Below the pieces are notes generated by a model, which saw nothing but the letters and a program-made list of their open reading frames with translations, searched no databases and was not told where the DNA came from. A stretch of 64,000 nucleotides of DNA from Vicugna vicugna (lineage: Eukaryota): NCBI GenBank assembly GCA_013265495.1, contig MU058213.1:558001-622000 (forward strand), written 5' to 3'. Made by a program: the position numbers and the translations under genes. Positions 1 through 55,715 of this stretch are shown piece after piece. Position 1 is the stretch's first letter; the number at the start of each line of letters is the position of its first letter.

Positions 1-2871
1 CGTGTTGTGATATCAGATGTAAAATTTTCCTAGGTAGAAGGGAAGAGACTGGAAATCCTTTTTTTTTTTCCTTAACTGCATATATCTCTTTTTTAGTTTA
101 AGTTGTTACCAGTTTCAAATTGTAAATCAATTATAGGTGATATTTTGTATTCTAAAGCATTATTTCTACTTTCTGCTAAAATCATTTTTAATTTAGCTTA
201 ATTAAATGGTTTATGATGAGTCTCGGGTTAAAAAAATACAATTGTAAAAAAAGTCTAGGAAATCATTATGTAGAATAATGAACATTTTAAGGACCAATCT
301 TTTTTTAAGTGAAAAAGGGACATTGCTGATGTGAGAATTGCTGTTGCACCTCTTGGGCACAAGGCGCTTCAAAACTTCCCTTATTCCACGGCATGTAGAC
401 TTTTCCATGTTTTAAAACACATGAACTTGGCAAGAGTGTGCTTTTTGCTTCATCAAGAAAGCAAATACTTTGCTTTAAAAGTATAGTTATATATAGTTTT
501 TCATTTTAATAATGTGGGCATTATTAAATTTTCATGAACACTCATAGTAAAAGAAAGCATCTGAGTAGGAAAGCTGTTTCCTTCCCTGTGAAATGCACAC
601 AGCCAATTTTCAGATATTTAGGATAAAAGAAAAAAGAAAGCTTTTGTTAGACACATGGAATCAGGGGTAATAAACGGTAGAGACTGCCTGAGAAGCACGC
701 ACACTGGGCATTTAAATTGATGGTTACTGTAAAGGAAGGTGGAGGCTGGCCTGGGTGCAAGGTAAGAGTGAGAAGCTCCCGCGTGCGACGCAGAACTGCC
801 TGAACGGCGCGCAGTCCCCACTCACTACCAGTTTTCCAGCCAGTAAGGAAAACGGCTGTTCTTGGTAGATCTAATTTTTATTATCTTGTTTCATCTTGTA
901 CTTTTTTGTCCGTATTGTATAAAAGTAATTTCTCATAAGTTGTCCTCCTCAAAGTATTCACACCCACAGTTGGACAGTGTACTGTGGTGGGAAGAATGAC
1001 CCCAGAGCCAGGAGTGGGAGCGCTGATGTGGAGCTAATTCACGCGTGCCTCGGGGCGGCCCCTGGAGCAGGAGACCCCTGAGGCACTGCAGCTACAGAGG
1101 ACAGGGGACAAAGCAATCAGCAATTCAGGCCTGGCTGTATCATTTACAGGGAGATTTTTCAAAAGGAGAGAATATCATTTCAGAATAGGAGGAAGATGTG
1201 TTGTTAATTTTTCTAAAACTTCTTGAAATTGAGTTACAACACGTCTGCTCCTTTGGCTTGGGCTGGACAGTTTATCTAATGATCACAGGCAAAAGCTTTC
1301 CTCAGACGAACTGACTGCTTTTTTGAAAAGTAGTATCCAGTGTTTTAAAGGGGCCAAAGATTGACTTGTACTATTCCACTGTTCCCTTTCAGTTACAGGG
1401 TGCTGGGTTTGATTTTTTTCAAGTTAGCAAGTCAGGCTCACGCTGACTCGCTCTCCCTCACTTTTTCATAAACGACTTTGGAAATGTACTCGATTCAGAG
1501 CCAGCACAGCCCCAGCAGGGTGGGGCGTCAGGGACACAAAGCCACGGTTACACTTCCTGCATGGCTGCCTCGCTTGCACTGCCCTGTAAGTCAATAAATT
1601 GTTAAGTATGTTACCCCTTCCTCCCGTAAGTTCTTTTCAAAATACAGGCAGGTGGGACCTCACCTAGAATTGTGTATCATACTTATGGGTAATACCTTTT
1701 TCACTTATTTATCAAAGTATGAAGAAGTTGAGTTTTTTGCTTGTACCATTCCACTTCTGAGCTACAACAGTTCATTATATAATTGAAGAAAAGATTTCTT
1801 AATAAATAACTAAGGGTGAACATTCATCCAACTGAATACAGACAAATCTTTCAAAAACTGTAATTACAAGGGAGAAAACTAGTGTTTACTTTGATCATTA
1901 AAAATCTGGCACCTCCTACCCTTTTAGTAACTTTCAGTATTTCTGTATTGCTCTAAAATTTTATGATAGATGAGGGTTATGAAATACTCTTGATTTTTAA
2001 ACCAAAGATTTTCTAAGATCTTAAATTTTGTAGTCTAACTAATTAGTCTAACTAATATAAACTTACCTGGTTATCTAAGCAAAGAATATTCTTTGCATTT
2101 TTAAATTGCTGTTTTTTTAAAAACCTTTTTTCATTTCCCATTTTATAAAATTTTATACTCATATTTGTCTGATATTCTAATTTTTCCAGTTTGTCTACAT
2201 GAAATTACATATTAAAAGTCAATAATACTGATATTATTAAAATGGGTTTTGGTGCTATCTACTTGTAGCTAAAGGCAGGTAGAAGTCTCAAGTACAGGTG
2301 AAATAAATTTTCTAAGGGTGCCTGTCATTTAAAAGACCAAATAAATATTTTGTGTTTAAAAAAGTTTTAACAGATTGTTAGAGATTTCAAGGGGAATTAC
2401 CTTGGTCATTAAATTGCGAATTCTTATATCTGAATGAAATATCCCAAAATACTTGCTTTGTACAGTAGGGACCCACTGGAAAAGTTACATGTATAGAACT
2501 TTGTAAATTGTTTTCCCATTGACAGTATCTCACTTTTTTTTCATTTAAAAAGGGGATTCCATGGTATAATGAAAATTAAGAGAAAAAAAGTTTTGATAAA
2601 ATGTTAGTCATGGTCTGTTGTACATTATATTTAACCCTTGCTGTCATTAAAATAAGATTAAAAGGTAAGATTAAAAGAGGTTTCATAAAATTAAATTTTT
2701 GGCTCTTTGTTGCCAGGGCTGCCTCATCTTTTCTTTCTAAAATTAGGAATCACACTGCTACCTCCCAGCAGACATGAGGATCATTCTTTTTCTGGCGTCC
2801 ATAGCAATTTCCAGTCTCTGTTTGGTACTGTCCAGTTTTGCTCCATCATTACAATGCCACTTCACTTTTTA

Positions 2872-3305
2872 AAAAAACTTTTTTCTAGTTTTATTGCTGT
2901 AATTGACATACAGCATTGTATTAGTTTAAGGTATACAACATACTGATTTGATAAATGCATATATTGCAAAATGATTAATAAAATAAGTTTAGTTAACATG
3001 TTACCTCACATAGTTTAAAAAAATTTTTTCCCTTGTGATGAGAACTTTTAAGACAGACCTATTCTGTTAGCAACTTTCAAATATGCAATACACTATTATT
3101 AACTGCAGTCACCATGTGCAGTACATCCCCAGGACTTATAAGTGGAAGTTTATAACTTTGGACACCCTTTACCCATTTCACTATTCCCCCACTTCCTGCC
3201 TCTGGCAACCACCAATCTGTTCTGTCTCTATGAATTTAGTATTTTTAGATTCTGATATGAAAGCATACAATATTCGTCTCTCTGACTTATTTCACTTAGC
3301 ATCTT
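2872..3305 (-). mobile_element. L1 3'-end fragment (L1MA-like)
   Basis: T-rich start and typical L1 3' UTR motifs (TGGCAACCACCAATCTGTTCT, TCTGACTTATTTCACTTAGCAT). Confidence 0.75.
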
Positions 3306-4549
3306 GAATAGTATTAACTGAAGACACGGCACCCACAAGAACCAAACACACTGAGTGTGTCACAGCAGCTCCTTCAAGGGGCCTGAGTTCTTCAGTCCGA
3401 ATATCTACAAAGCTGTCATCTCCATCAGTTCTCACTGAGCATTAATGTTTCTAGCTATCTGCCATTATAAGACAGGATTTCTAGCTATTTCTCAATCAAA
3501 GGAACTCTTCACTAATTTTTAAGTTGAGAAAACTATAATAAGCAAAGATTTTTATATTACGTCATTTTAATTTGGTCAGTCTTTCTTATGTCATCTGATT
3601 TTTTTTTCTGCGTTATAATTTAATTCCATAAATCCTTCCCTAAAACACTGAATAAATCAGAGTTTTTTTTTATAAGAAAATATTTGTAACAGTTTGTTAA
3701 TGCCAAACTCTAACTTGCAGTCTGATCATTGAGAGGAGCCAGTCTTGTAAACCATTGCCAAGGATTTTAGAAAGCCTTCACTGCCTTACAGAGAATTTTA
3801 CTTCGGACACCTGCTCTAGTGCTGGATAAGCCACCCACCATGTTTTGTGCAGGGTCGTATGTTTTGAAGACAGTCGGACTCCTCCCCATCTTAGAGTCTA
3901 CATATGTGAAGCATAACTGTCTTTTCTACAATCAGTATATTGTAATTTTTGCAAAGCAATTAAAAGGCCTAAATCTTTCTGTCAGTTACTGTAGTCCATT
4001 CAGAGAGTAAAGTTTATGAACAAATTCTGAGTGCTTTTTGATGGGTACATACAGCCATTTTTAGGAGTTTAAATTTCATCTTAACTCAGAAGTAAAGATG
4101 AGAAAGTCTTTCATTCAGCTGTTTCAACTTTTTGGATTTGTCTACTTAAGAATTGGTTTTTAAAAACTAAAAGCAAAAAAATTGCACATGAATACGCACA
4201 CAGAGTATCAAAACCTTTGTAATTTCAAATAAATGCCCACCTTTTTTTCAGCCTCTTTTAGATGAATTATATTTGGTTTTAGTTATGTTTAAAAGTTTGA
4301 ATATTACCTTTGTAACTGCATCATTCTTTATCACATGAAATTAGGTATTTAAATACTTTTTTTAATGCTAATATCCAAAATGCTATAAAAGCTTTACTTT
4401 TTCAATTTATATAAATATGAAAGCAGTGAATTTTATAATACTTTAAATATTATAAAAGATTATTATTACTATTGGTTCATAATAGTACAGTGAAGTTTCT
4501 TTTGAAAAATATGGACTATAGGCATTTAGAATTTACCACTTGGTATTGG

Positions 4550-4565
4550 AATAAATTTCAATAAA
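4550..4565 (+). terminator. Tandem AATAAA polyadenylation signals, candidate distal TMOD3 poly(A) site
   Basis: AATAAA at 4550-4555 and 4560-4565 at the end of the AT-rich UTR-like block; another AATAAA at 1593-1598. Confidence 0.45.
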
Positions 4566-5034
4566 GTTTATCAAATACCCTATAGACTTGGACTTTTTGG
4601 AAACTACATTCTAAAGTTCAGTCCTTGCACACCTCTTAGGAACAAGCTTACTGATTTCCCTGAGTTGTCCTATCCCACACTATTAAGTTAAACCATATAA
4701 AATAGTCAGTACTTGACCATTTATACCCACAAAAGCAGTAAGTTCATATGGTTCAATATCATACCATCAGTACTTGGTCTGGTCTGTCCGTAAAACTGAA
4801 TTGAGTTGACAAATGTGAAGAAAACGGGGTCCTAGGATACAGTGCAGCCTGGACCCGGTGGGAGCCAATCCTGCTAATAGAGGTTATTTTTGCAGTAAAA
4901 CAAAGGCGTCTCTTATCAGTCACCTGTATCCATCAGCCAAAAGAGAAAGTCAGTGAAATGTGTAATGGGCTTGAGGAAACTTTTAGGGGTAAACATTAGA
5001 TAATTCATTTCTGAAACTTGAGGAATAAAGAAAT

Positions 5035-5135
5035 TCCCCTTGAAGTTTACATCTGTAAAATGAGAACAGCACCCACCCGTCGAGTTGTTCTGAGGATTAG
5101 ACTTGGTAAGGCCTGTACAGCACTTGGCAAAGCCC
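5035..5135 (+). mobile_element. MIR SINE fragment
   Basis: CATCTGTAAAATGAG...GTTGTTCTGAGGATTA core. Confidence 0.55.
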
Positions 5136-5449
5136 TGAGTCTCCAGTGAGCCCTCCCGTGCTGTCCTGCGCTGACAAGGTCACAGGGCGGCGGGGTCAGT
5201 GGCAAGTTAGTGTCCTGCCAACGCAGCACGCAGGGCCCCGAACCCTGCTGGGCAGGCCAGGGAGGACACTGGAGAAGGTGACGCCCGAGCTGAACTTAAC
5301 CCATCTCTGGGCTGGGCCAGGGGGACGGGGTGAGGCAGAGCAGCAAGGATGCACGACACCCAAGACCCAGAGCAAACAGTCATCAAAATAAGCTTCTATT
5401 TGAGAAAAGTGGATTTTCTAAAATCACAAACTTACTTATGAATATTTTT

Positions 5450-5455
5450 TTTAAT
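5450..5455 (-). terminator. ATTAAA poly(A) signal of the LEO1-like paralog
   Basis: Sits at the position homologous to LEO1's AATAAA (TTTTAATTACAA vs TTTTATTACAA on + strand). Confidence 0.6.
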
Positions 5456-5547
5456 TACAACTAGGATTATGCAAAAGCAACTCAAGTCCTCATTTGAATC
5501 AAAACATTTCGTCACTGTCTTTACCATATTTACAGTGAGTGCACGTT

Positions 5548-5610
5548 TTATGCTTCAGTCATCCTCTTCCTCTTCATGCCCTGCTTTCCTCTTTCTGGAG
5601 GGTTCACCTG
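5548..5610 (-). CDS. LEO1-like exon 12' (terminal exon)
   Basis: Acceptor TGTTCAG|CAG|GTGAACC. LEO1 frame reads GEPSRKRKAGHEEEEDD* (TGA 5555-5557); phase-0 frame reads QVNPPERGKQGMKRKRMTEA* (TAA 5548-5550). The frame actually used is uncertain. Confidence 0.55.
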   Translation of the reverse strand, partial: QVNPPERGKQGMKRKRMTEA

Positions 5611-6619
5611 CTGAACAGATACGAGAAAGAAGAGAGACAATTTTCAATACTGAACGTTTGTGGAAATTTAGTCTAAAGCAGTTGGGAGCCAATGTGGGGA
5701 GCCAGCCCTTCGCATGGGCTGACTGGCGACCTTATCCACAGACACTGTGTCTGCGGGTCCGGCAGTGGGAGCCCGGGCTGCCCGGGCAGCGGTCAGGGCC
5801 CAGGGACACTTCTCACTCCATCCTGACTGGGATTCTGCTCATGTTACTTGGAATACATTCCCCTGTTCCTCAGTACTTCACTTTCTCTATGTAAAATTCA
5901 GTATTTTAAAGCCTGTCAACTTTTTTTCTTAAAGGACTGCTTGTGTTTTATGTGCTTTTCTAGTATGCTTTCAGAGTTTAAAATATATTTTTCACATGAA
6001 AAGTGAGTGCCTCCCTTACGCGGTAAGGGACACTGCTCTCACTGCGATGTTGACTCGGCCCTGTAACTCCAGATCCATCGTGCAGCATGCTCAGTGTTCA
6101 GAAAACATGGCATGAATGAATGTGGCACAGTGGCAACATAGTGATTCACCTGTATAATTAAGACTTAAAAAATTTCTTTGGACTCGGAAGTAATTAAAGG
6201 AAAATAATTTTAATAACATGGAAATAAAATAACCCCCCACTGTTATACTCAAACACTAAGGGCACCCAGTGCCCACCATGGACACGAGGCCCCTCTCTCT
6301 ACTGCACTGAACCATTTCAGGTTCTCTAGCCAAGCCCTGCTGTCTCGGGGCCATAGGTCTTTTCTCACTGGCGGGCCCACCCTAACACTCTTCCTTCAAC
6401 ACTGAGCAAGAGGGCACCTTCTCTGGGCAGCCCCCCACCATGCACAGGTGTCAGACCCTCCCCAGGCCAATCATTCCTGGTCCTGTTACTGGATTTATCT
6501 CCCCGGGGTTCAGGGAGCTGTGCGGACGTCTGTGCTCCTGGGCTGAGAGCCTCTTCACTCCAGGAGCTGACTTGTGGGTACAAGGCAACCCCCTTCGAAC
6601 TGAATAAATTTGGTTTTAC

Positions 6620-6717
6620 CTCATCACTGGTGAGTTTCTTTGCTTTGAGTAATCTCTGAGCCTTATCTTCCTCTGGGCCCTCACCACTGTCTGAAGAACA
6701 GATTCTGGCCTGTTCCT
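6620..6717 (-). CDS. LEO1-like exon 11' (98 nt)
   Basis: CTTTCAG|AGG...GAG|GTAAAA; LEO1 frame [32 protein letters not shown]; also stop-free in the shifted frame. Confidence 0.6.
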
Positions 6718-7269
6718 CTGAAAGCAAAGGAACTTTCCATATGGGATTGACCTTCAGAGATGAAGTTCCATGAATTCTCAAATTTTTCTGATGCTGAATA
6801 TTTTAACTTTCCACTCTATCTTTTTCGCTTGAGGGAAACAGTTTTTTAAGTTTTGATGAAGAGGTAGATAATACCTTTCAAACGCGCTTAAATGACTTAG
6901 AGTTGAAAGGTTTTGTCCTCAGATGTCTGATCACTTCTAGATACCCGGGGGGCTTTATGCACATCTTTTTTTAAAACTACGAAGTTTAAACTTTGGGTCC
7001 ATCATCATACAAGCAGGCGAACTGCCTATGAACACATTTTCCTTCATAAGAGCATAAATTATTTAATTGATTTTCTTTATTCTGGGGGTGCCTTATTTAC
7101 CCAGCTAAGCTTTTGTGTGGGAAAGTGGCTCTACAAAAACAAAGACAAAATAAAAGGCCTTTGTACTGTTGTCCCTGTACTGTTGTCCTAAGTGAGTAAG
7201 AGCAGGACGGGTAGTAAGGGCCCACCAGAGCACAGGCGGCCCCGAGACGGTGCAGTGTGACCGGCTCAC

Positions 7270-7434
7270 CTTGGCACGCCCCTCGGGAATGGTTTCTGAT
7301 GGTATCTCAACCTCCTCCTCCCTCTCATCACTGCTGTGGTCCTGGCAGGCGGGGCTTGGCCCCTGCTGGTTCTGCTTCTCCCGCAAATACATTGTCTCCT
7401 GGTGAGCAGAAGCCCTCAAACGTTCTTCTTCTTT
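7270..7434 (-). CDS. LEO1-like exon 10' (165 nt vs 187 nt in LEO1; net -1 frameshift near 7305)
   Basis: TTTACAG|AAAGAAGAAG...[39 protein letters not shown]... Confidence 0.65.
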
Positions 7435-8364
7435 CTGTAAAGAAGCAAATAAACTACTGAACTTAAAAAAAAAACCAAAAAACAACTAGCTTAGTGCCCA
7501 CTTGAAACTATTTCACTACAAAGGAAATGTAAATGCCTAGCCCAGGATAACACCCATTCCCTGTCCTGGATACAGTTCTCTCCATCCGACACCTCTGTTA
7601 ACCAGACACGGGCATCATCTTGTTTGGTTCTAAGGCGTGAAGACAACACAAAGGTGAAGGACAGAGGCTCCCTCACACCAACCGCCCCATCGGAACAGGC
7701 ACAGGTTCGGCCGTGGGCTCAGCCGTGTCCCCTGTGCTGCCCGTCAGAGCCCAGGCAGCCGCCACCCAGCAGGTGCCTGAGGCAGGCGGTTTCTCTTCGC
7801 CCCTGAGACGGACACCTGACTTGCCCAGGCTCCACCAAACTACCGTGGTGCCCAGATATTCCTGTCTGGGCCCCTCAACCCAGAGAGCTCCCCACAGCTC
7901 CTGACGGCAGGATGCAGGACGGGGAGGTGCTGGGGGGGTTCCCTGAGCCCCAAAGTAGAACTTTCGTTCCTGTCCATCAGCCTGGCGGTCCACACGATGG
8001 GGTTCACAAGGCAGGGCTGGTGTTAACCAAGTCAGGAATGTCCTTTGACGTTCCTACATCACTGACTACCTGGAACACAGTTTTATGATACCTGTCAAAG
8101 GTTACACTTTTTAAACCATCAGTTTGCCCTGAAATCTCACAGATTGGAGACAGAGCTCCTGAATGTCTGGAGTGCTCTACCTCACCAGTGGCCATTGGCT
8201 AGGACCAGTAATACAATTAACCACATGCTTGGAAGGTCAAAGCTAGCTCCCTGATAACTATAAGAATAAAATGGCTGTGGCAATAAGGAATGACAGATCA
8301 ATATTCTGGAAAGCACAGCTCTTACTACCCTCAAAAAACCCAGGATAAAGCTCAGGCAACATAC

Positions 8365-8500
8365 CTTAATCATCTCTATGCGTTGGCATTCAGGATCACG
8401 ACCAGCCATTGGTAAGATTCTAATCTTCTGTATCCCCGAGCATCTATTAGCAAGTGGCAGGGTCATCTTTTTATGCGTGGCATAGTCTGTAGAGTGAGGT
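8365..8500 (-). CDS. LEO1-like exon 9' (136 nt)
   Basis: CCGCAG|ACC...[54 protein letters not shown]. Confidence 0.75.
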
Positions 8501-8844
8501 CTGCGGGAAACAAACAAAAAAGTCTCACTGTATAATAAGAACAGTTGTTGGCAATAGTGCCAACAGCAAACAGCTGTGGACAAAGACATGTCCCTTTAAT
8601 GGAGCAGAGTGGCAAGGCCACAGTACTGGTGCTTTAGGGCCTTCCTCCTTCTCTGGCTTCCTAAGCAGTTCCCCCTTTAGCCCTGCCTCCCAGGGAAAGC
8701 TGATGGGGTGAAGTGGGAGTGGAAGGAAGGAGGAGATGGTGGGGTCCAAGGCTTTTATAAAGAAAACCCGCAAGTACAATCACAGAAGAGACGACATGGG
8801 AGATCGTAGTTCCATGAAGGTGGCACAGAGGCCAGAAGGTAGAA

Positions 8845-8936
8845 TTTTTTTTTTTAATGAAGGTACTGGGGATTGAAACCAGGACCTTGTGCATGCTAAG
8901 CACATAATGCACCGCTGAGCTGTACCCACACACCCT
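8845..8936 (-). mobile_element. tRNA-derived SINE (camelid Vic-1-like)
   Basis: Reverse complement has box A/B-like AGCTCAGCGG...GCATGCACAAGGTCCTGGTTTCAATCCCCAGTACC and an A tail. Confidence 0.8.
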
Positions 8937-9619
8937 GAGGCACAACTTAAGTCCCTCCATCTGGATAAAACTTGAAGAAAAATGAAAGCAAGGAGGCGGG
9001 TCTCAGGAGGGGAGCAACATGACAGCCCAGAGGGACAACAACAGCTGGAATAGGAGGCCCTGGTGCAGAAAGCCGCGGATTCCTCACTAATGGAAGGCAC
9101 ATCTTAGGAATGATCCTTAGGGAAATCACAAGGAGAGTGTGGCTGTAAGGAATGAAACTGCACTGGGCAGTCAATATCACCCCCACGTGGAGGAGCTCGG
9201 GGCACAAGAGAGGAAAGCACACTGTGGAACTGGTTGTATGTAGGATGCCGGCCTAGCAGAGATCATTAAGGGCCGGACTGGAGCAGTATTTCTTGTGCAT
9301 GGCATGATATTTTTACGTATTACTTGACTCAGTGGATAGAGCACCCCTCTGAGGGAGATGTTATCTCCATTTTATAAGATAAGGAAACTAAACACTGCTG
9401 AGATTGAGACTTCCTCAAGCTTACACGAGCATTAGTGAAACACAACCCCAGAGCTGTCTGCTGCAGTCTTTGAAACAGCAACATCTTTCTGGAGTATAAT
9501 TTATATACCATAAAACTCACTCATTTTAATAAATAATTAAAGGATTTTTTAATTTATCAAGCTGTGTGATCTGTACCACAACCTGATTTAAAACATTTCC
9601 ATGACCCCAGAAAGGACCC

Positions 9620-10085
9620 TTGCGCGCACCGTGACAGTCTTCTAAGAGCCCCGCTTCTGAAGGGAGGCCGCACAAGGGCCAGTGCGTCCCGCGGAAGGAA
9701 GGCGTGAGCAGGCACGCGAACCGCGAAGAAAAGATGCGCGCGCGGCACTGGGCGCCGGCCGCTCGAGCTCAGTGCGCAGCCGCAGCACCGGCCGGCCGGC
9801 CCTTTCCTCTGGCGCATGCGCACTGCAGGAGCCGGCGCCCCGGGTAACCGCCCGGGACCAGACCGCGGGCCTGGGGGAGCGGCGGCTCGGAATCACGTCA
9901 TCTCGGCCGACTCGGGCTTTTTGCACACCCAGGCTCTCTGCCTTGTTGCTCTTAAACTGCAAGGAGCAATACGTCAGTACGAATAGTTACCTAAAGGTGA
10001 GTTTGGATTTGAAGACGGCTTGTCCCCGCAGACCCGTGTCTTCGCGAATGAACAGGTGGTTGTAATTGCCCAGCAGCGGGGCTTT
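9620..10085. promoter_or_regulatory. CpG island inside the paralog (intron 8' and exon 8') with NRF1 and CRE-like motifs
   Basis: Dense CpG/GC; GCGCATGCGC at 9812-9821; TCACGTCA at 9893-9900; TACGTCA at 9970-9976. Confidence 0.7.
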
Positions 10086-10125
10086 GTAGACATCAAACAC
10101 CTCACTGCCTAAGTGCAGGGACAGG
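9991..10125 (-). CDS. LEO1-like exon 8' (135 nt)
   Basis: TTTCCAG|CCTG...[55 protein letters not shown]. Confidence 0.75.
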
Positions 10126-10703
10126 CTGGAAACGAGAAATCGTCCAGTTATCAGGGTGGGTATCGAGCGAACCCTGCAGCTTCCATTCTACCCCATTAGC
10201 TGTTCTTAAACTGCTGTGGGACTGCAGGGTCCCATCCTCTACTGAACTCCTAAGGAATGCGAAGAATTTACCGTCAACAGCTAAGCTACCTTCTTTCCAA
10301 ATAAAAGGTGGTAAAAATCCATCCTCCTTTCAGCCAGAAATAGAATTTTTTTTATCATTTTCCCACCCTCTACCTCTTTTATTAGTAAAAGAGAAATCTT
10401 TTTTTTTCAAACATACCAATTTCTAATTTCTAATAGTCACATTTGGGAGCTAACATTGGGTTTTCACTTCAGTAAGGTAGATACCATGAGTCTAATCACA
10501 TCTTGGGTCTATTTGTCTCCCTCCAGCACAGCACTGTGCTCTCGACCCTATTTATTCCTATCAGGTGATGCCAGAGGCCTAGATTTTGTTAATTCTTTCA
10601 TGAAAGATGACCTACGGTCCTACACAGAAAACTTCAGTCTTCCCAGGCCCCCCACCACCACCCAACCCCGGAACTTCCATGCTCTCCAGGACTTTATGCT
10701 CAC

Positions 10704-10798
10704 CTCCCATCTGACCACTTGACTATCCGAGCATTGCTTTCTTTAATTTTATTTCCTTCTTTGTCCCGGCGTATCCTCCATCGTAAAGTATTTTCCAC
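10704..10798 (-). CDS. LEO1-like exon 7' (95 nt)
   Basis: AATCAG|GTGGAA...[42 protein letters not shown]. Confidence 0.75.
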
Positions 10799-10835
10799 CT
10801 GATTCAAAACACAAAGGCATTAGAAAATCAGTGTA

Positions 10836-10970
10836 GGGGGGAGGGTATAGCTCAGTGGTAGAGTGTATATGCCTAGCATGCAGGAGGTCCTGGGTTCAAT
10901 CCCCAGGACATTATAAATAAACCTAATTACCCCCCTCAAAAAAAACCCTAAAAATAAATTATTAAAAAAA
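10836..10970 (+). mobile_element. tRNA-derived SINE (Vic-1-like)
   Basis: GGGGAGGGTATAGCTCAGTGGTAGAG...GGTCCTGGGTTCAATCCCCAG...AAACCTAATTACC, A tail. Confidence 0.85.
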
Positions 10971-12049
10971 GATCAGAGATTTATTAGCTGTGAAAGAAGA
11001 AAAGACAGAAAGAAAGAAACAAAGAGACCAGTGTAACTATGTGTTCTTTTTTCCTCAAGTGATTCATACTCATGTGCCAAGGATTCATAGGCAGTGATAG
11101 AATAATCTCACCAAAAAAGAGCTGATTGGGCTCCTCCTGCCACAGATACCTCGAATATTGGTTAAACTCACCAGATGTTCTGTGTAAATCTTCTCTGAGC
11201 TTCAGTTCATGGCAGTGGAAGTGGAAATTTGGGGACCACATGAGGTAGGTAGGCAGTTAAAGCAGGGCCTTCTGCCTACTGCAGCCCCATTTGAAGGGCT
11301 ATGACCCCAATGAAAGAAGGACTAAAAAAGTGCCCATTCGCCTAGTAAAACAGGGAAGCTCTGGGCATTAAATTTTAGAAATGTTTAAAAGAATATACAA
11401 TTAAGTAATTAACAACAAATTAAAACCTGAGGTGTGTGCTTTACCCTACCCATGTGGCAGGGAACTCCAAATCATAAAAATGGAGCCCGCCACTGCTACC
11501 ACGGGGGCCCCGGCAGAAGCTCACAGAAAACCCCCTTAAAGATGACACATGCCTGTGAGAGCAATGGTAGGGCTTTGCCAGCCAGGCCTTCTGGAGAGGA
11601 ACCACCTAACGGCGACGAGGCCTCTTTCTGTGCATAATCTGAATTTCCATAAAGAGCCTGAGATACCCTTATTGTGGGAAGTTGCTCAGACCTCTCCACT
11701 GTAAAACTGGAGGCAGTTTTATACATCTAGCTACATTATTTATCCCGAAGGAAGTAGCTGACAATTTTCAAGAATTTTTATCTGTTCTTCTGTCAAAAAT
11801 TACAACTGCAAAAGAAAGGTTAGAAAAGCGACAATTCTACAGGGATTTTTAAAAAAGGATATGTACCTTCTCCCCTAGAAATATTCTGAAAAGACACTTA
11901 ATTCCTTGTTCTAAACAGTTATTTGTTGATTCAAGAGTAAACATAAAAGACCATTTCATAAGCTCAAGTCTCAAATTGTTATCCTTGTGTTTTACTTTAT
12001 AAAAAGAAAAACGTTACAACAACAACAACCAGGAATCAAGTATTGGTAC

Positions 12050-12134
12050 CTTTAATTTTATCCTGGTTCTATCTTCCTCGTCAAGCATTTTCTCATCTTC
12101 AAATTCATCTTCATAATACTGAGGATCAAAAGGC
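12050..12134 (-). CDS. LEO1-like exon 6' (85 nt)
   Basis: TTTTAG|GCCT...[37 protein letters not shown]. Confidence 0.75.
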
Positions 12135-12819
12135 CTAAAAATTGTTTTTAATGTAGTATTAGCCATTTGTAGTATTGAATATAATACTATCAAATAATAA
12201 TCTTTACATCTTTAGCATACATTAAAAAAATCACAGTAGACAAACTTCATGTAAAACTTCAAAGTATGCAAATTATTATCACTTCTTGAAATTTGATTTC
12301 AAAACATATTACCAAATGTGACGACTGATTCAAAGTTTTTAAATTTTTTTTTGTTCGGTGAAATGTATCTTCTATTTTTTCATATTTTTAAAGAAAAGTG
12401 TCATGTTTAATTGCATAAGAGCTTATACTCATGCATCTTCATGAATAATACCAACCAATACTATTTTATTGTCCAAAATCATTGTCTTTTCTAGATTCAC
12501 AATGGCTTTTGCATTTAACACTAGTGATTTCTCTAGCAAACTTTCTACGCTTATTTTACAATTTTTCCAGCTTTATCAGCTATGTCTGTTCGTTTATAAG
12601 GAAGTGCCAAAATGCTAGCAGAATTATCAGCATTAAAACTTTTCCCACAGTAATTCATCATTTTTCTACTATAGCACATCCTAAATTTATTTTTTTTAAA
12701 GCCACATGAGAAACCTCCCATCTTGCCGATTAGCCAACTCATTATAAGAAAACATTTACGTTCCACATATTTTTTACTCAATATCTTGGGGGGGGGGAAA
12801 CTTTTATCAGTCCTCTTAC

Positions 12820-12965
12820 TTGGGTTCTATGCTGAGAAATCTGGGTAGTTTAACAAAGTACAATACATTTCCTAAATCAGAGTAGATACTGGGAATTTCT
12901 ACTTCTATTTTGGTTTCAGAAATCGGCTCTTCCTCCTGCTGGTCCTGCGGCACTCCACGTCCATC
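12820..12965 (-). CDS. LEO1-like exon 5' (146 nt)
   Basis: CTTAG|GATGGA...[59 protein letters not shown]. Confidence 0.75.
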
Positions 12966-13600
12966 CTAAGAGAGGAATCAGAGGAATCAGAACGTGAGAG
13001 CTTGAGCTGACGTGAGAAATGCTCTGGCTCCCCTTCTGCACTGTGCAGATGCAGGTTTGACAGAAGTCAGTTTAGACACCACTTCAGAAACAGAGCAGTC
13101 AGCAACCAACCCCTCCAGGCCTCTCCTTAAAATTTCATCCTTTCCTCCCCTCCTCCCCCCAAACCACCATGCAAAACAAGATCTGGTAGCCTGCATTACC
13201 AGAAAAAAGTCTCGACACATCTAGCTTGCATAAGATGTTTAACAACAGAAGTGTGAAATTATGCAACCCCTCAATACAAGGTAACTATTTACATCACAGA
13301 AGAATGTCCAGAAACACACACTCCTTGGCACAGGTTTGAGTAAGAAAAACTTAAAGGTTTTCAAATGAGTTCTCACAGTCTAGTCCCTAAAGTTTGGTAT
13401 GAGACTCATTCTGAGCAGTTCCTTCCATTCCCTTTAATATCCAGAAATTCCCAACATAGTTAAGTCACCTGTTCATCAGATATTTCAGACTGCTACTCAT
13501 TATCCATGTCCTCTCTGTTCAAGAGTTGGATCCATCAGCCTCTGAAACCTTTTCTTAGCTTTGAACAATGGGACCAGTTGAGATTAGTGACTGTACTTAC

Positions 13601-13695
13601 AACAGGCTGTCCTGGAATAGGTGGTTGATTGTCCCCATCACTCTCAGAAGAAATGTCATCTATGTCTCCGAACAGGTCCATGGTCCCACTATAAT
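13601..13695 (-). CDS. LEO1-like exon 4' (95 nt), containing the candidate start ATG at 13681-13679
   Basis: TTGAAG|ATTATAGTGGGACCATGG...GTT|GTAAGT; (D)[31 protein letters not shown]; Kozak ACCATGG. Confidence 0.7.
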
Positions 13696-13901
13696 CTTCA
13701 ATGTTGGGAGAAAATGCCCAGTATTAATTTCTCTGACTGAAACCCTTAACACAGTTCTCAGCCCATCACCTCAACATATTCCCAAGATTCATAAACCAAC
13801 CGCAAACTGGCTTGGCTCCCTGAGTCTGGCCGTCAGAAGCCTGACAAGAGCATCTGTGGAGAAGGAAGGTGGCAAAGTTGGTTGGTGGAAGGCAAAGTAG
13901 C

Positions 13902-14360
13902 TGTGACAGCCAGCTTTCAAGAAGGGGACGGTGACTCCTGCCTCTGGTATTCTTGCCCGTGTGCAGTCCCCTCCAACACTGTGTCGTGGTTGGTCTATGT
14001 GGGCAATAGAATACAGCCTCGCTTCCAAGGCTGGGCATGACATCGTGGCTTTTCTGCCTCACTTTTTCCCTGGGGTCACTTACTCTAGAGGAAGCCAGCT
14101 GCCATGATGGGAAGATACTCAAACTGCTCTGGAGAGGTTCCTGTGGTGAGAAACTGAGGCCTCCTGCCAAGAGCCATGGGAGTGAGCCATCTTGGAAACA
14201 GACCCTTCAGCCCCAGACCAGCCTTTACATAACACAGCCTCAGCCAATATCTTAATTGCAGTCTTGTGAGAGACCCTGAGCCAGAACCACCCTGCTAAAC
14301 CATTCCTGACCCTCAGAAACCATGAGATATATTAATGTTGTTTTAAGCTGGCTCTCTTAG
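13902..14360 (+). mobile_element. MaLR solo LTR (MLT1F-like)
   Basis: TGTGACAGCCAGC..., GAGGAAGCCAGCTGCCATG, GAAACTGAGGCCTCCTGCCAA, GAGACCCTGAGCCAGAACCAC, TGTTTTAAGC. Confidence 0.7.
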
Positions 14361-14489
14361 GGTATGGAGTTGGAGAAACTGAGGGGTGGTATGTAGGTCA
14401 CACAAGATATATCTGCTCTAACACACCTATCTCCCTAAGTCTTCGGATTCCCACAAATTGACTAAAACGTGGGCAGAACACCTGGATGG

Positions 14490-15440
14490 GCTTTTTTCCC
14501 AAAGAACATGCAGAAGGCTAACAGGCACATGAAAAGATGCTCAACATCACTAATCATCAGAGAAACGCAAATCAAAACCACAGTGAGATATCACCTCACA
14601 CCTGTTAGAATAGCTATCATCAAAAAGTCTACAAATAGCAGGTGTTAGCGAGGCTGTGAAGAAAAGGGAACCCTTGTACACTGTTGGTGGGAATGTAAAT
14701 TGATGCAGCCACAATGAAAAACAGTATGAAGTTTCCTGAAAAAAACCTAAAAAATTCCTACCATATAATCCAGCAATTCCACTCCTAGGTATATATCTGG
14801 AGAAAAAAAAAAAAAGACCAAAAACACTAATTCAAAAATATATATGTACCATAATGTTCATAGCAGCATTGTTTATAATTGCTGAGATATGGAAGCAACC
14901 TAAGTGTCCATCAACAGATAAATGGATAAAAAGAGATGTGGTATATATGTACAATGAAGTTTTACTCAGCTATAAAAATGAAATTCTATTTGCAACAACA
15001 TGAATGGACCTAAAGGGTATGAGTAAAATAAGCCAGAGAAAGACAAATACTGTACAGTATCACTTATATGTGGAATCTAAAAAATAAATCAGTGAAGATA
15101 ACCGAACAAACAGACTCCCAGTTATAGAGAACAAACTACTGGTTACCAGTGGGGAGAGGGGGTGGGGGTGGGGGTAAAATAGGAGTAGGGGATTAAGAGG
15201 TACAAACTACTGTGTATAAAATGAATAAGGTACAGTGATGTCCTGAACAGCACAGGGAAGATAGCCAATATTTTGTAACTTTACATGAAGTATAATCTGT
15301 AATTATAAATATTTGAGTCACTATGCTGTACTCTTAAAACTAATATAATATTGTAAATCAACACTACATCAATTATAAAAAAGTTACACAACATTGTAAA
15401 ATGATTATAAATCAATAAAAAATGTTAAAAAAAAAAAAAG
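14490..15440 (+). mobile_element. L1 3' fragment (ORF2 end and 3' UTR), ending in a short younger L1 tail
   Basis: CACATGAAAAGATGCTCAACATCACTAATCATCAG, CAATTCCACTCCTAGGTATATA, poly(A). Confidence 0.85.
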
Positions 15441-16227
15441 TTCCCTCAGAGAGGCAAACTGTTTCCCACAGGCAAGGGAGGCTCAGAGGAACTAGGAAAT
15501 TTGTTTCTCAGCTTCCTCTGAGTCCAAACAGATACCCCCACCCCTAGTTTCTTTCTCAATCAGTGCCCTTTCACGTGAGAGACTTGAAGAGGCTGTGAAG
15601 TCAACGATGCTGCAGTTCTGCAACCACACAAAAATATGTTTGATTTTCAGCTACCTCAGTGTTCTGACTACAGAATAAGAGATTTCTTCAGCGCTGTCAT
15701 GAATCCTCCCTGGTTCTCTGACCATGACTTAAGCTGAAGTTTAAAGATCGAGGCTTGTAAACTCTCTGTAAGTGTTCCAGGGCGCTGGGAAGCATCCATC
15801 CCACAGCGCGGCCCTGACCGTCGTCAGGACTGCCTAACAAGCGCAGCAGCCTCTTGAGCCTGCAACCATAGGGACAGCGAGACCCGTCACGGGGCCAGGG
15901 CGCACCCTGGGTCACCAGCATCCTGCTTCCCACTGGTGAGGAGCTCAGACCTGCATTCAAACCCAAATCGATCTACACGTCTCACCTTCAGGAATTTGTT
16001 TCCTGGACTATCCAGACAGGCCCTAGTTGGGCAACAGGAAACATACCAGTTATCTATACAGATAGAATTTAATATTTTTTAAAATTGTAATTAGCTTTAA
16101 CGTTGTTCATTAGGTAACAAAAAGTATAGAAAGCACAGAAGGAGCAAATTCAGAGAGCAGCTTCCACCCCTACAGATGAGGGAACAAAGGGAAGAGGTAG
16201 AATTATTATTACACTTAAAAAACTTTT

Positions 16228-16360
16228 GGGGGTGGGGGGAGGGTACAACTCAGGGGTAGGGTGGGTATTTAGCATGCATGAGGACCTGGGTTCAATCCCC
16301 AGGACCTCCATTATATAAACAAACCTAATCACCTGCCCCCCCCACGAAAAATTCAAAACA
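16228..16360 (+). mobile_element. tRNA-derived SINE (Vic-1-like)
   Basis: TTAGCATGCATGAGGACCTGGGTTCAATCCCCAGGACCTCC...AAACCTAATCACC. Confidence 0.8.
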
Positions 16361-16764
16361 ACAATTTATACACAGGGTCCTTGGAGCTGGAACTCATACC
16401 TGAGGAGAAGTGTCCAGTTAGTTCTGATGTCTCTCAGGCTCTTCAAGTCTTGGTAAAGCTGCACACTGGACTGAGCTGCTGCAGGAAGAAACTGCCTCTG
16501 CTGGGGTGAAGTGTTGGTGGGCCCCCTGAGAAAAACTGCAAGTAAACAGGAAGCCCCTAGAAAGTTCCACAAACAAACAGGAAGGAGCAATCTCTGCTGT
16601 TATCCAGGTTTCCAGTCTTCCTTCTCTAGCGCCCCTAACAGGCAGCACCTGGCAAAGCTGAAATAAGGTTGCAGAGTCTTGCCCTTTATCTCTCAGCCTG
16701 GCAGCCTGGTATGGAGGGCTGGTTTGGAGATGAGAGACAAGAGCTTAGTCACTGACACAAGTGA

Positions 16765-16849
16765 AAGGAAGAAAGGAAGGAAGGAAGGAAGAAAATAAAT
16801 AAAATAAAAAATGAAATGAAATACAATAAAACAAAACAAAACAAAACAA
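16765..16849 (+). repeat. Compound A-rich simple repeat (GGAA/AAAT/AAAAC)
   Basis: Direct reading. Confidence 0.8.
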
Positions 16850-16902
16850 TGTTGCCTTAGAAGGGACAGAGTCAGAATGACGGCTCTTAAAAGCCAGACA
16901 TA

Positions 16903-17032
16903 GGGAGAGGGTATAGCTCAAGTGGTAGAGCACACGTTTGGGATGCACAAGGTCCTGGGTTCAATCCCCAGTACCTCCTCCAAATAGAAATAAATAAACC
17001 TAATTACCTCCCCCTCATAAAACAAACAAATG
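16903..17032 (+). mobile_element. tRNA-derived SINE (Vic-1-like) with target-site duplication
   Basis: SINE body flanked by AAAGCCAG(A/G)CATAGG at ~16890-16904 and 17033-17047. Confidence 0.88.
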
Positions 17033-17289
17033 AAAGCCAGGCATAGGAGTTTCAACTTAGTAAGCCGAAAAATAGCAAGGGACGGAAGGCTTCTTAGGAA
17101 TGTGACACAGTGGTGACTTAGGACCGTCTCTTTCCATGTCACTTTTCTTTATAACCAGGCTTCAGGGAAAGCCTCCCACGGCCACAACTGCTAGATTGTA
17201 TTAACAGCACTAGATCGAGTCCGTTCATAAGGGAAAGATTAGTGTGTGTAGACCACCACCATAGAAAAGAAAAATATTTATCTTAAATA

Positions 17290-17834
17290 TGGATTTAAAA
17301 CATACCTAATTCTTTGCCATTGCTACCATCAAGGAGTCAGAATTTCCCTCCCTTTGAATATGGGCTCACATTAGTGACTCACTTCTAATGAACAGAATGT
17401 GTTAGATTCTGATGTGATTTCCAATACTAGTCATAAAAGGTAATACCAAAAATGGGCAGTACAGCTCTCACTCGGTCTGCTCTCTTGGGGTGCTCACCTT
17501 CGGAACCCAGCCTTTGCAGATGTAATTAGTTAAGATGAGGTCACACTGATTTTGGCTGGCCCTAAACCCATTGATTGGTGTCCTTATAAAAAGAGGGAGA
17601 TCTGGAGACACACTGAGGCACAGAGCAGACACACAGGGAAACGATCCACGTTAAGACAGAGGCAGAGATTAGAGTTATGCTGCCATAAACCAAGGATCAC
17701 TGGGAGCCACAGAAGCTAAGACACGCAAAGAAGGTGACACCTGATCCAGGCTCCAAACTGTATGGAGTACATTTCTATGGTTTTAAGCCACGCAGTTTGT
17801 GGTACTGTTACAGCAGCCCTTGCAAACGAATACA
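17290..17834 (+). mobile_element. MaLR LTR remnants (older MLT1 piece followed by MLT1B/C-like piece)
   Basis: TTTGCAGATGTAATTAGTTAAGATGAGGTCA...GGTGTCCTTATAA...TTTAAGCCAC.CAGTTTGTGGTACT.GTTACAGCAGCC...AATACA. Confidence 0.7.
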
Positions 17835-18042
17835 ATTATGGAGGCTTTCTTTGTGCTCTTTTTCAAAACTCTGTGCCTGAGAAGGACGCCTCACTCACCT
17901 GACCTTGTCCTGGCCAGGAAGCTTCTTTGTGGGGCCTGGAAGAATTCACTGAAACTTGCGACTCAGTGTAAAGCATTAACGAAGTCAACCTGCTTTGGGA
18001 GGAGTCAATTTCTTAAACAGAGACTTGCTTTTTAAATTTTTT

Positions 18043-18048
18043 TTTATT
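18043..18048 (-). terminator. LEO1: LEO1 AATAAA poly(A) signal
   Basis: TTTATT on + strand, ~115 nt after the stop codon. Confidence 0.75.
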
Positions 18049-18163
18049 ACAATTAAAATTACACAAGAGCAAATCAATGTATTTCAATCAAAATAACTCA
18101 TGTTTACATCATATTTATAAAACAAACTGTACAATAAAATATATAGTTTTCACATTTTGCACT

Positions 18164-50934
<32,771 letters not shown>

Positions 50935-51389
50935 TGCCGCGCACGTCCGGGGCTATCTTGCCTAGAGGCGGCTCCGCGACTGTCTTTACGGCACTGAACC
51001 AACGAATCGCGACAGTGTCGCAAAGATTCGCTGAACGTCTAATTTCCTCCTGTAAAACTAGTGTTCGCGTGCCTCGTGGACCTATACTTGTCGACTCTTA
51101 CATGTCCACAAATTACGTCCTTTCGTCAGTATCTATTCTTATTATCGAGGATTTTTACCCGAGTGCACCCAATCTGGGTGTCAGTGGAGCGGGCGGCGCT
51201 TGGGAGCTCCTGGTGTTAAACCTGCCAGGAGTCAGGCCTGGAGTTCTTTGTTTCATATCGATGAGCTGTTCTCAAATTGTTGCGAACTCCAAAGCGCTTT
51301 TGTTCATGTGGGTTATATGCCATTTACCGTATTAGTAATTAAGGCAGAAATTTTTTAAATTCTTTTTGAAATAATAAGTTCACTAGTAG

Positions 51390-55567: not shown

Positions 55568-55715
55568 TGGAGGGGGAAATATGAGCTTGGATCAAGTGGT
55601 AGAGCACATGCTTAGCATTCACGAGGTCCTGGGTTCAACACCCCAGTACCTCCTCTGAAAATAAACAAACCAAATTACCTCCCTTCCGTCCCCCCCCCCG
55701 CAAAAGAAAACAAAG
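55568..55715 (+). mobile_element. tRNA-derived SINE (Vic-1-like)
   Basis: CAAGTGGTAGAGCACATGCTTAGCATTCACGAGGTCCTGGGTTCAACACCCCAGTACCTCC. Confidence 0.8.

Follow-up and report, generated by a model that had tools for sequence, protein, structure and literature searches.

A partial tandem copy of LEO1 in Vicugna vicugna is, on comparative evidence, the camelid orthologue of a placental LEO1-like gene

A stretch of 64,000 nucleotides of the Vicugna vicugna genome (assembly GCA_013265495.1, contig MU058213.1, positions 558,001 to 622,000; hereafter the window) contains LEO1, which encodes a subunit of the PAF1 complex, and a second, shortened copy of it. All coordinates given here are window positions, and both genes lie on the minus strand. 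The copy spans 5450-13695, holds the counterparts of LEO1 exons 4-12 and adjoins LEO1 (18164-50934) on its downstream side. Sequence comparisons identify it as the camelid orthologue of a placental "LEO1-like" gene, represented in mouse by LOC666190, which we name LEO1L. The locus is not new. A preliminary description of this DNA, made from its letters alone, had left undecided whether automatic annotation already listed it; public annotation does so in many mammals, this genus included, as well as in a mouse NP_ record, and LEO1L is therefore known as a feature. We consider it likely that camelid LEO1L goes back to a partial duplication of LEO1 before the placental radiation, and that it is a spliced, translated and weakly constrained gene whose product would act as a PAF1-binding variant of LEO1 or as its competitor.

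A BLAST comparison of 5000-14500 with the remaining window returned collinear matches to LEO1 exons 4-12 and to some intron segments, in agreement with the second same-strand copy that had been described. The exon alignment bore out that exons 4'-9' (primes denote the copy) keep the lengths of their parental counterparts, with an AG acceptor and a GT donor at each (12/12 splice sites). Exon 4' (13695-13601, 95 nt) has the length and splice sites of parental exon 4 and carries the start codon, ATG 13681-13679, in the context ACCATGG. It is followed by exon 5' (12965-12820, 146 nt, of which 116 equal the parent), exon 6' (12134-12050, 74/85 nt), exon 7' (10798-10704, 89/95 nt), exon 8' (10125-9991, 110/135 nt) and exon 9' (8500-8365, 136 nt), where the Leo1 domain ends. 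From ATG 13681 there are 226 stop-free codons, identical to the parent at 184/226 amino acids and 585/692 nucleotides without an indel; our recount gave the same residue figures as the preliminary description. The introns have diverged, as had also been noticed: they are 61-70% identical to the parental ones where alignable, and introns 7 and 8 give no high-scoring segment pair (HSP), the exception being a 577-nt tract of intron 9 at 95.0% identity.

The 3' part of the copy departs further from its parent, in ways that go beyond the preliminary description. Exon 10' (7434-7270) is 165 nt long, its parental counterpart 187 nt; this net deficit of 22 nt alters the exit phase, and divergence is strong beyond the first 27 nt, yet camelid models use the exon in frame. 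Exon 11' ends at 6620 and can begin either at an upstream acceptor (6751-6620, 132 nt) or at the acceptor homologous to that of LEO1 (from 6717, 98 nt). In exon 12' the acceptor is displaced by 1 nt and 48 nt are deleted in frame. Its coding part (5610-5548), read in the -1 frame, yields a basic tail that ends at TAA 5550-5548, and the ancestral-frame stop TGA 5557-5555 is also retained. The poly(A) signal reported as surviving is the variant ATTAAA (5455-5450), which stands opposite the parental AATAAA (18048-18043).

The preliminary description had seen no counterpart of LEO1 exons 1-3, and our searches of the region below LEO1 agree: in window 1-18300, tblastn at E<=10 produced a single 7-residue match (E=8.8), and blastn downstream of LEO1 found repeat or intron-3 pieces only. 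Searching the entire assembly yielded 13 matches, comprising seven copy exons, five parental exons and one match on another contig.

The assignment of the copy to the LEO1-like gene rests on its similarity to protein models of other species. Over exons 4'-10', the window protein is identical to Vicugna pacos LEO1-like isoforms X1 and X2 at 279/281 residues, the two differences affecting nothing essential, and to the Camelus models at 272-273/281; over exons 4'-9', it shares 220/226 amino acids with Camelus ferus. The 45-residue translation of exon 8' found 77 matches at E<=0.001 among 79 candidates, most of them NCBI models of 170-400 aa named "RNA polymerase-associated protein LEO1-like". Its identity is 96% to Camelus and 93% to the chimpanzee LEO1-like protein; to exon 8 of LEO1 itself it is 80%. 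Other best matches came from meerkat, two tenrecs, marmoset, cats, mustelids, seals, whales, bats, ruminants and rodents. When the Vicugna model served as query, the best 120 of 498 matches, together with 15 of the 21 members of an ape cluster, extended the range to lemurs, loris, colugo, tree shrew, squirrels, rabbit, hare, pikas, pangolin and Mus musculus. The mouse orthologue is NP_001360927.1, an "uncharacterized protein LOC666190" of 357 aa, and the orthologous models span Afrotheria, Laurasiatheria and Euarchontoglires. By these comparisons XP_031528634 (Vicugna pacos), XP_014408910 (Camelus ferus), XP_054523519 (Pan troglodytes) and XP_006243476 (Rattus) represent the same gene; the database records carry no functional annotation past the name. 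The premise of a single-copy LEO1 fails in the placental genomes sampled.

Phylogenetic analysis places the copy within one old paralogous lineage. From 91 rows, made up of one representative per listed species and LEO1 outgroups, we kept the 66 that cover at least 200 of the 226 columns and dropped 25, among them 16 partial LEO1L-type models; the tree was obtained with the quick search of IQ-TREE. All 50 LEO1L rows form a single clade (Shimodaira–Hasegawa-like approximate likelihood ratio test, SH-aLRT, 100) on a stem of 0.15 changes per column, and this clade adjoins placental LEO1, nested within amniote LEO1. Inside it, carnivores, bats, cetartiodactyls with the camelids, primates, rodents and lagomorphs group as in the species tree, and the window copy joins the Vicugna and Camelus models (SH-aLRT 99). 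Given that partial tenrec models hold the LEO1L residues of exon 8', the duplication predates the split between Afrotheria and the other placentals. In the window LEO1L adjoins LEO1 downstream on the same strand, and read-through models that join the two genes in chimpanzee and in a bat suggest that they are neighbors there too.

At twelve diagnostic sites the residue of LEO1L differs from that of vertebrate LEO1, and the window copy matches LEO1L at 11 of them, including N156, E164, D165 and S176 in exon 8'; at site 61 it has V, in place of the E of the LEO1L consensus and the D of LEO1. The majority of its differences from LEO1 (24/42) are shared with at least 50% of the non-camelid LEO1L rows. 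Across the 50 LEO1L rows, 64/226 columns are invariant and 122/226 are conserved to at least 90%, although the total branch length within the clade amounts to 4.57 amino-acid changes per column. Neutral sequence over a placental tree of this kind is expected to retain essentially no invariant column. The 64 invariant columns would then exceed the neutral expectation, a comparison with general background in place of a computed test. The window copy and chimpanzee LEO1L are identical at 192/226 residues, chimpanzee and mouse at 160/225; set against typical neutral distances, such values suggest an omega (dN/dS, the ratio of nonsynonymous to synonymous rates) of very roughly 0.2-0.5 between orthologues. 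The parent evolves far more slowly. Between orders LEO1L is 72-89% identical, whereas the placental LEO1 records compared agree at 100% of the same 226-aa region (the window LEO1 equals the beaver record throughout), and identity to fish and reptile records is 91-98%; with parental exon 8 as query, the best 120 matches listed are all 100% identical, from sharks to mammals.

Evidence that LEO1L is transcribed comes from relatives. Three Logan-derived proteins in an equid LEO1L cluster are 298-299 aa long and come from short contigs (1084-1196 nt). Their sequence begins at the exon-4' Met, extends without a break through exons 4'-9' and has 12/12 diagnostic residues. The simplest reading is that the contigs are assembled spliced cDNA, and such intron-less contigs of about 1.1 kb point to spliced LEO1L RNA. 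Similar short-contig proteins occur in a rat cluster and in one further source. Three RNA-Seq runs labelled as reproductive-system samples share 0.15-0.18 of the words sampled from window 5300-14000, a figure that does not by itself speak for expression or for a tissue. Taken together, the single clade, the 12 diagnostic residues, the 64 invariant columns and the intron-less equid contigs lead us to conclude that LEO1L is a constrained gene, albeit one far less constrained than LEO1.

The predicted protein corresponds to the "mini-LEO1" of the preliminary description, a Leo1 domain without the acidic N-terminus. The Vicugna LEO1-like model that is identical to the window protein at 279/281 residues scores 171 bits against Pfam PF04004 (Leo1), where the cut-off is 27, and covers profile positions 1-164 of 165 with its residues 63-224; window exon 8' alone scores 31.1 bits. 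In an alignment with structure 6TED, whose LEO1 chain has 666 residues, Met 1 of LEO1L corresponds to residue 312 of that chain, and the aligned part extends to about residue 583. Compared with LEO1 (6TED chain U; 4M6T), LEO1L thus has the complete Leo1 domain, with 81% amino-acid identity over 226 residues, and shares the structure and phases of exons 4-9. It differs by the absence of the first 311 residues, the acidic Ser/Asp/Glu-rich region that derives from exons 1-3, by its tail and by its far faster evolution. The segment that aligns to the PAF1–LEO1 heterodimer 4M6T (LEO1L residues 53-151) is the most conserved, with 37/99 columns invariant, whereas its flanks have 10/52 and 17/75. Because the segment through which LEO1 pairs with PAF1 is the best-conserved part of LEO1L, binding to PAF1 is the most likely activity predicted for the product.

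At the 5' end, 44 of the 65 orthologous models begin at the exon-4' Met, and a few models in some orders have their own short upstream 5' coding exon or an extended exon 4'. In tree shrew, rabbit and pika models, a common 12-residue leader, MDS(C/S)SSSDYSGT, precedes that Met, which implies that LEO1L has a short 5' coding exon of its own in the tree-shrew and lagomorph lineages; no counterpart of this leader was found in window 13696-18200.

Beyond exon 9' the sequence is variable, but two types of tail recur across orders. One, ...PPERGKQGxKRKxMTEA, is basic, occurs in models with exon 11' and uses exon 12' in the -1 frame; the other, GEPSRKRK...EEEEDD, is acidic like the tail of LEO1, occurs where models join exon 10' straight to exon 12' and keeps the ancestral frame. 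Exon 12' thus has two predicted reading frames, and the presence or absence of exon 11' decides between them. In the window, three splice routes are each open to a stop in the last exon. Direct joining of exon 10' to exon 12' gives 301 aa. Use of the exon 11' acceptor at 6751 gives 345 aa, with the ancestral frame kept in exon 11', and this extended 132-nt form is also present in a Camelus dromedarius model. With the homologous acceptor at 6717, the product has 315 aa and its tail is frameshifted. As a consequence of the 22-nt loss in camelid exon 10', both the route that skips exon 11' and the one through 6751 end in the basic tail.

Several observations weigh against this interpretation and temper it. 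The evidence from the present genome is weak by itself, and the case rests on the comparative data. The preliminary description had relied on the open frame and the 81% identity, and its numbers are correct, but they are indecisive as evidence for a gene: when neutral decay was simulated with 55-85 substitutions, no stop arose in 7-16% of the runs (a probability of 0.07-0.16), so the open frame alone proves little. Four methods put dN between copy and parent at 0.10-0.11 and dS at 0.33-0.51, for a pairwise omega of 0.20-0.31. Nearly all of the dN falls on the copy lineage, because the LEO1 protein is unchanged, and if all of it is assigned there, omega for that lineage rises to about 0.4-0.6, indicating that constraint is modest. 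The C-terminal third is unstable, given the net -22 nt in camelid exon 10' and tails that vary between orders. Moreover, 16 of 66 LEO1L-type rows cover less than 200 of the 226 columns, and some of these models start at an internal Met; either decay in certain lineages or assemblies of poor quality could be the cause. A sample of protein models is also biased toward intact copies, since pseudogenes give no protein record. A LEO1-like protein from human, marsupials or monotremes is absent from the matches listed (120 of 498, and 15/21 of the ape cluster), which is weak evidence of absence because these matches are part of each set.

A rival idea treats the copy as an unprocessed pseudogene, with exons that owe their conserved look solely to repeated refreshing by gene conversion from LEO1. 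Conversion does appear to have touched the locus. The tract 7408-8009 is 95.2% identical to parental 26759-27358 over 604 columns, extends from within the 3' part of intron 9 to 27 nt into exon 10, and looks like a recent conversion event between the copy and LEO1; the frameshift of exon 10' relative to the parent and a copy-lineage omega close to relaxed evolution would suit such an origin as well. However, conversion from LEO1 would erase paralog-specific residues, and the 12 diagnostic sites are instead fixed across 50 species that form one monophyletic clade with its own stem. High identity breaks off within about 10-25 nt of the ends of exons 7' and 9', and no HSP was obtained for introns 7 and 8. 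Nor are the disabling mutations or the neutral substitution pattern of an unprocessed pseudogene seen here: exons 4'-9' are free of stops and indels with every splice site intact, exon 10' leads to a last-exon stop by all three routes tried despite its frame-changing loss, and the differences between LEO1L and LEO1 fall 28/21/58 on the three codon positions, with no indel or stop in 690 nt at 84.5% nucleotide identity. A neutral control is available within the same genome in the form of a processed, intron-less LEO1 pseudogene fragment on another contig (L008, ~1483-2422), which covers exon 8 to exon 12. At a comparable divergence (81-84% nucleotide identity) it has acquired two stops in frame, an insertion of about 380 nt and five gaps, of which two shift the frame, and its differences are flat over codon positions (26/22/28 over ~530 nt; Fisher p=0.024 against LEO1L). 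We therefore regard a converted pseudogene as very improbable.

Chimeric models in public databases raise another question, namely whether the copy makes no protein of its own and its exons serve as an alternative 3' block or read-through extension of LEO1 transcripts, in which the C-terminal half is swapped. Two chimpanzee UniProt entries and a Sturnira "LEO1 isoform X2" run through LEO1 exons 1-7 and continue from LEO1L exon 8' onward; their diagnostic sites 1-8 are of the parental type, those from exon 8' on of the LEO1L type. In the 919-aa "isoform X1" of Rhinolophus sinicus, LEO1 exon 11 runs into LEO1L exon 4'. Read-through or chimeric transcripts of the two genes may thus exist. It also fits this arrangement that no promoter was identified, and no CpG island is present, upstream of exon 4' in the window. 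Yet the chimeric models are predictions, the exon-4' Met is the start both of most orthologous models and of the protein encoded by the equid cDNA-like contigs, and some orders have the 5' coding exon or extended exon 4' described above. Use of exons 8'-12' alone would, in addition, not conserve exons 4'-7', where 42 columns are invariant among the 50 LEO1L rows. On balance an alternative 3' block seems unlikely to us. A further proposal is that LEO1L functions in many placentals while decaying in camelids, so that the window copy would be a transcribed relic. The 22-nt loss in exon 10', the loss of diagnostic site 61 and the fact that 8/42 amino-acid differences are common to less than 10% of the other LEO1L could be taken as signs of such decay, but exons 4'-9' are intact and nearly identical in Camelus ferus, both window splice routes still lead to the basic tail that other orders have, and the camelid branches of the tree are short; we give this proposal very little credence.

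Under the favored interpretation, in which LEO1L is a functional, weakly constrained gene, a partial tandem duplication extending from intron 3 to the 3' end of LEO1 would have taken place before the placental orders diverged. Splicing of the copy would use the GT-AG sites inherited from LEO1, and translation would begin at the Met that corresponds to LEO1 residue 312. The product, of about 301-345 aa, would comprise a short acidic leader, the whole Leo1 domain, a variable linker and a short tail at the C-terminus, which exon 12' supplies in a frame unlike the one LEO1 uses there. Purifying selection on this product would be much weaker than that on LEO1. Through its conserved core, LEO1L may bind PAF1 and form a variant PAF1 complex without the acidic N-terminal arm; alternatively, it may compete with LEO1 and titrate PAF1 away. 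Its expression is probably confined to a restricted cell type.

A precedent for a cell-type-specific PAF1 complex exists in Drosophila. Two reports (Vilstrup et al. 2024, PMC11535153; PMC12324932) describe a testis-specific complex of PAF1 paralogs, tPAF, composed of Paf1L, Leo1L (leo1t), Ctr9L and Cdc73L. Leo1L associates closely with Paf1L there, and both male fertility and transcription termination at testis genes depend on it. As in mammals, a LEO1 paralog is retained beside the canonical gene. On the other hand, flies have paralogs of all core subunits, and the fly function is known from genetics, whereas mammalian LEO1L is known from sequence. The mammalian gene appears to have arisen independently, as it branches inside amniote LEO1 in a tree built without a fly sequence. 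The fly complex, as described there, makes a variant complex in mammals plausible by analogy, which is not evidence for it. A bolder version of our proposal would make LEO1L a placental-wide, probably germline-restricted variant subunit of the PAF1 complex that retains the core with which LEO1 pairs with PAF1, dispenses with the 311-residue acidic N-terminus, has a last exon read in two frames and constitutes an independent counterpart of the Drosophila testis complex; we offer it tentatively, as a possibility that we hold to be rather less probable than not. LEO1L may, furthermore, exchange exons with LEO1 through chimeric transcripts.

In the open full-text literature, with subscription journals and supplements outside the scope, we found no paper on a mammalian LEO1 paralog. 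The term "Leo1-like" was considered as a possible name for the paralog and rejected, as in the passages and reference lists where it occurs it stands for RDL, which we take to be an old alias of LEO1 itself and hence not the paralog. The open literature searched treats LEO1 as one gene, while the placentals sampled carry a second, shortened and conserved copy, which appears solely as an automatic "LEO1-like" or LOC record and would be an unstudied truncated subunit of a much-studied complex. If LEO1L does pair with PAF1, the PAF1 complexes of some cell types would lack the long acidic arm of LEO1, and the interpretation of LEO1 knock-outs, antibodies and proteomics could be affected. The Drosophila testis complex shows that such variants can be essential for fertility (PMC11535153).

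The parental gene occupies 50934-18164 on the minus strand and has 12 exons that encode 666 aa from ATG 50934 to the stop at 18164: exon 1 (50934-50877), exon 2 (42065-41310), exon 3 (39307-39203), exon 4 (36004-35910), exon 5 (34674-34529), exon 6 (33773-33689), exon 7 (30731-30637), exon 8 (30110-29976), exon 9 (28816-28681), exon 10 (26785-26599), exon 11 (24130-24033) and exon 12 (18268-18164). Its promoter CpG island lies at 50501-51250. By-eye inspection of window 1-5400 for TMOD3 exons revealed no convincing open reading frame.

The copy contains a CpG island of its own at 9600-10000 (more widely 9501-10250), at the start of intron 8' and just past exon 8', with a GC content of 0.62-0.75, an observed/expected CpG ratio of 0.94-1.10 and the palindrome GCGCATGCGC at 9821-9812. 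Parental intron 8 offers no counterpart (no HSP), no second copy occurs across the 2.03-Gb assembly, and the island holds neither an open reading frame of obvious identity nor an Rfam family. It is a candidate internal or antisense promoter. In the adjacent exon 8', weak-to-strong changes relative to the parent exceed strong-to-weak ones (14 vs 7).

The sole match in an Rfam scan of window 1-20000 was a tRNA-like head of a short interspersed nuclear element (SINE). Copies of a tRNA-derived SINE lie at 16907-16979, 10836-10962, 8845-8927, 16234-16369, 48936-48990 and 55595-55684, and one of them scores as a tRNA in Rfam with 38.9 bits. Introns 6' and 8' of LEO1L carry SINE insertions that are unmatched at the homologous parental positions.

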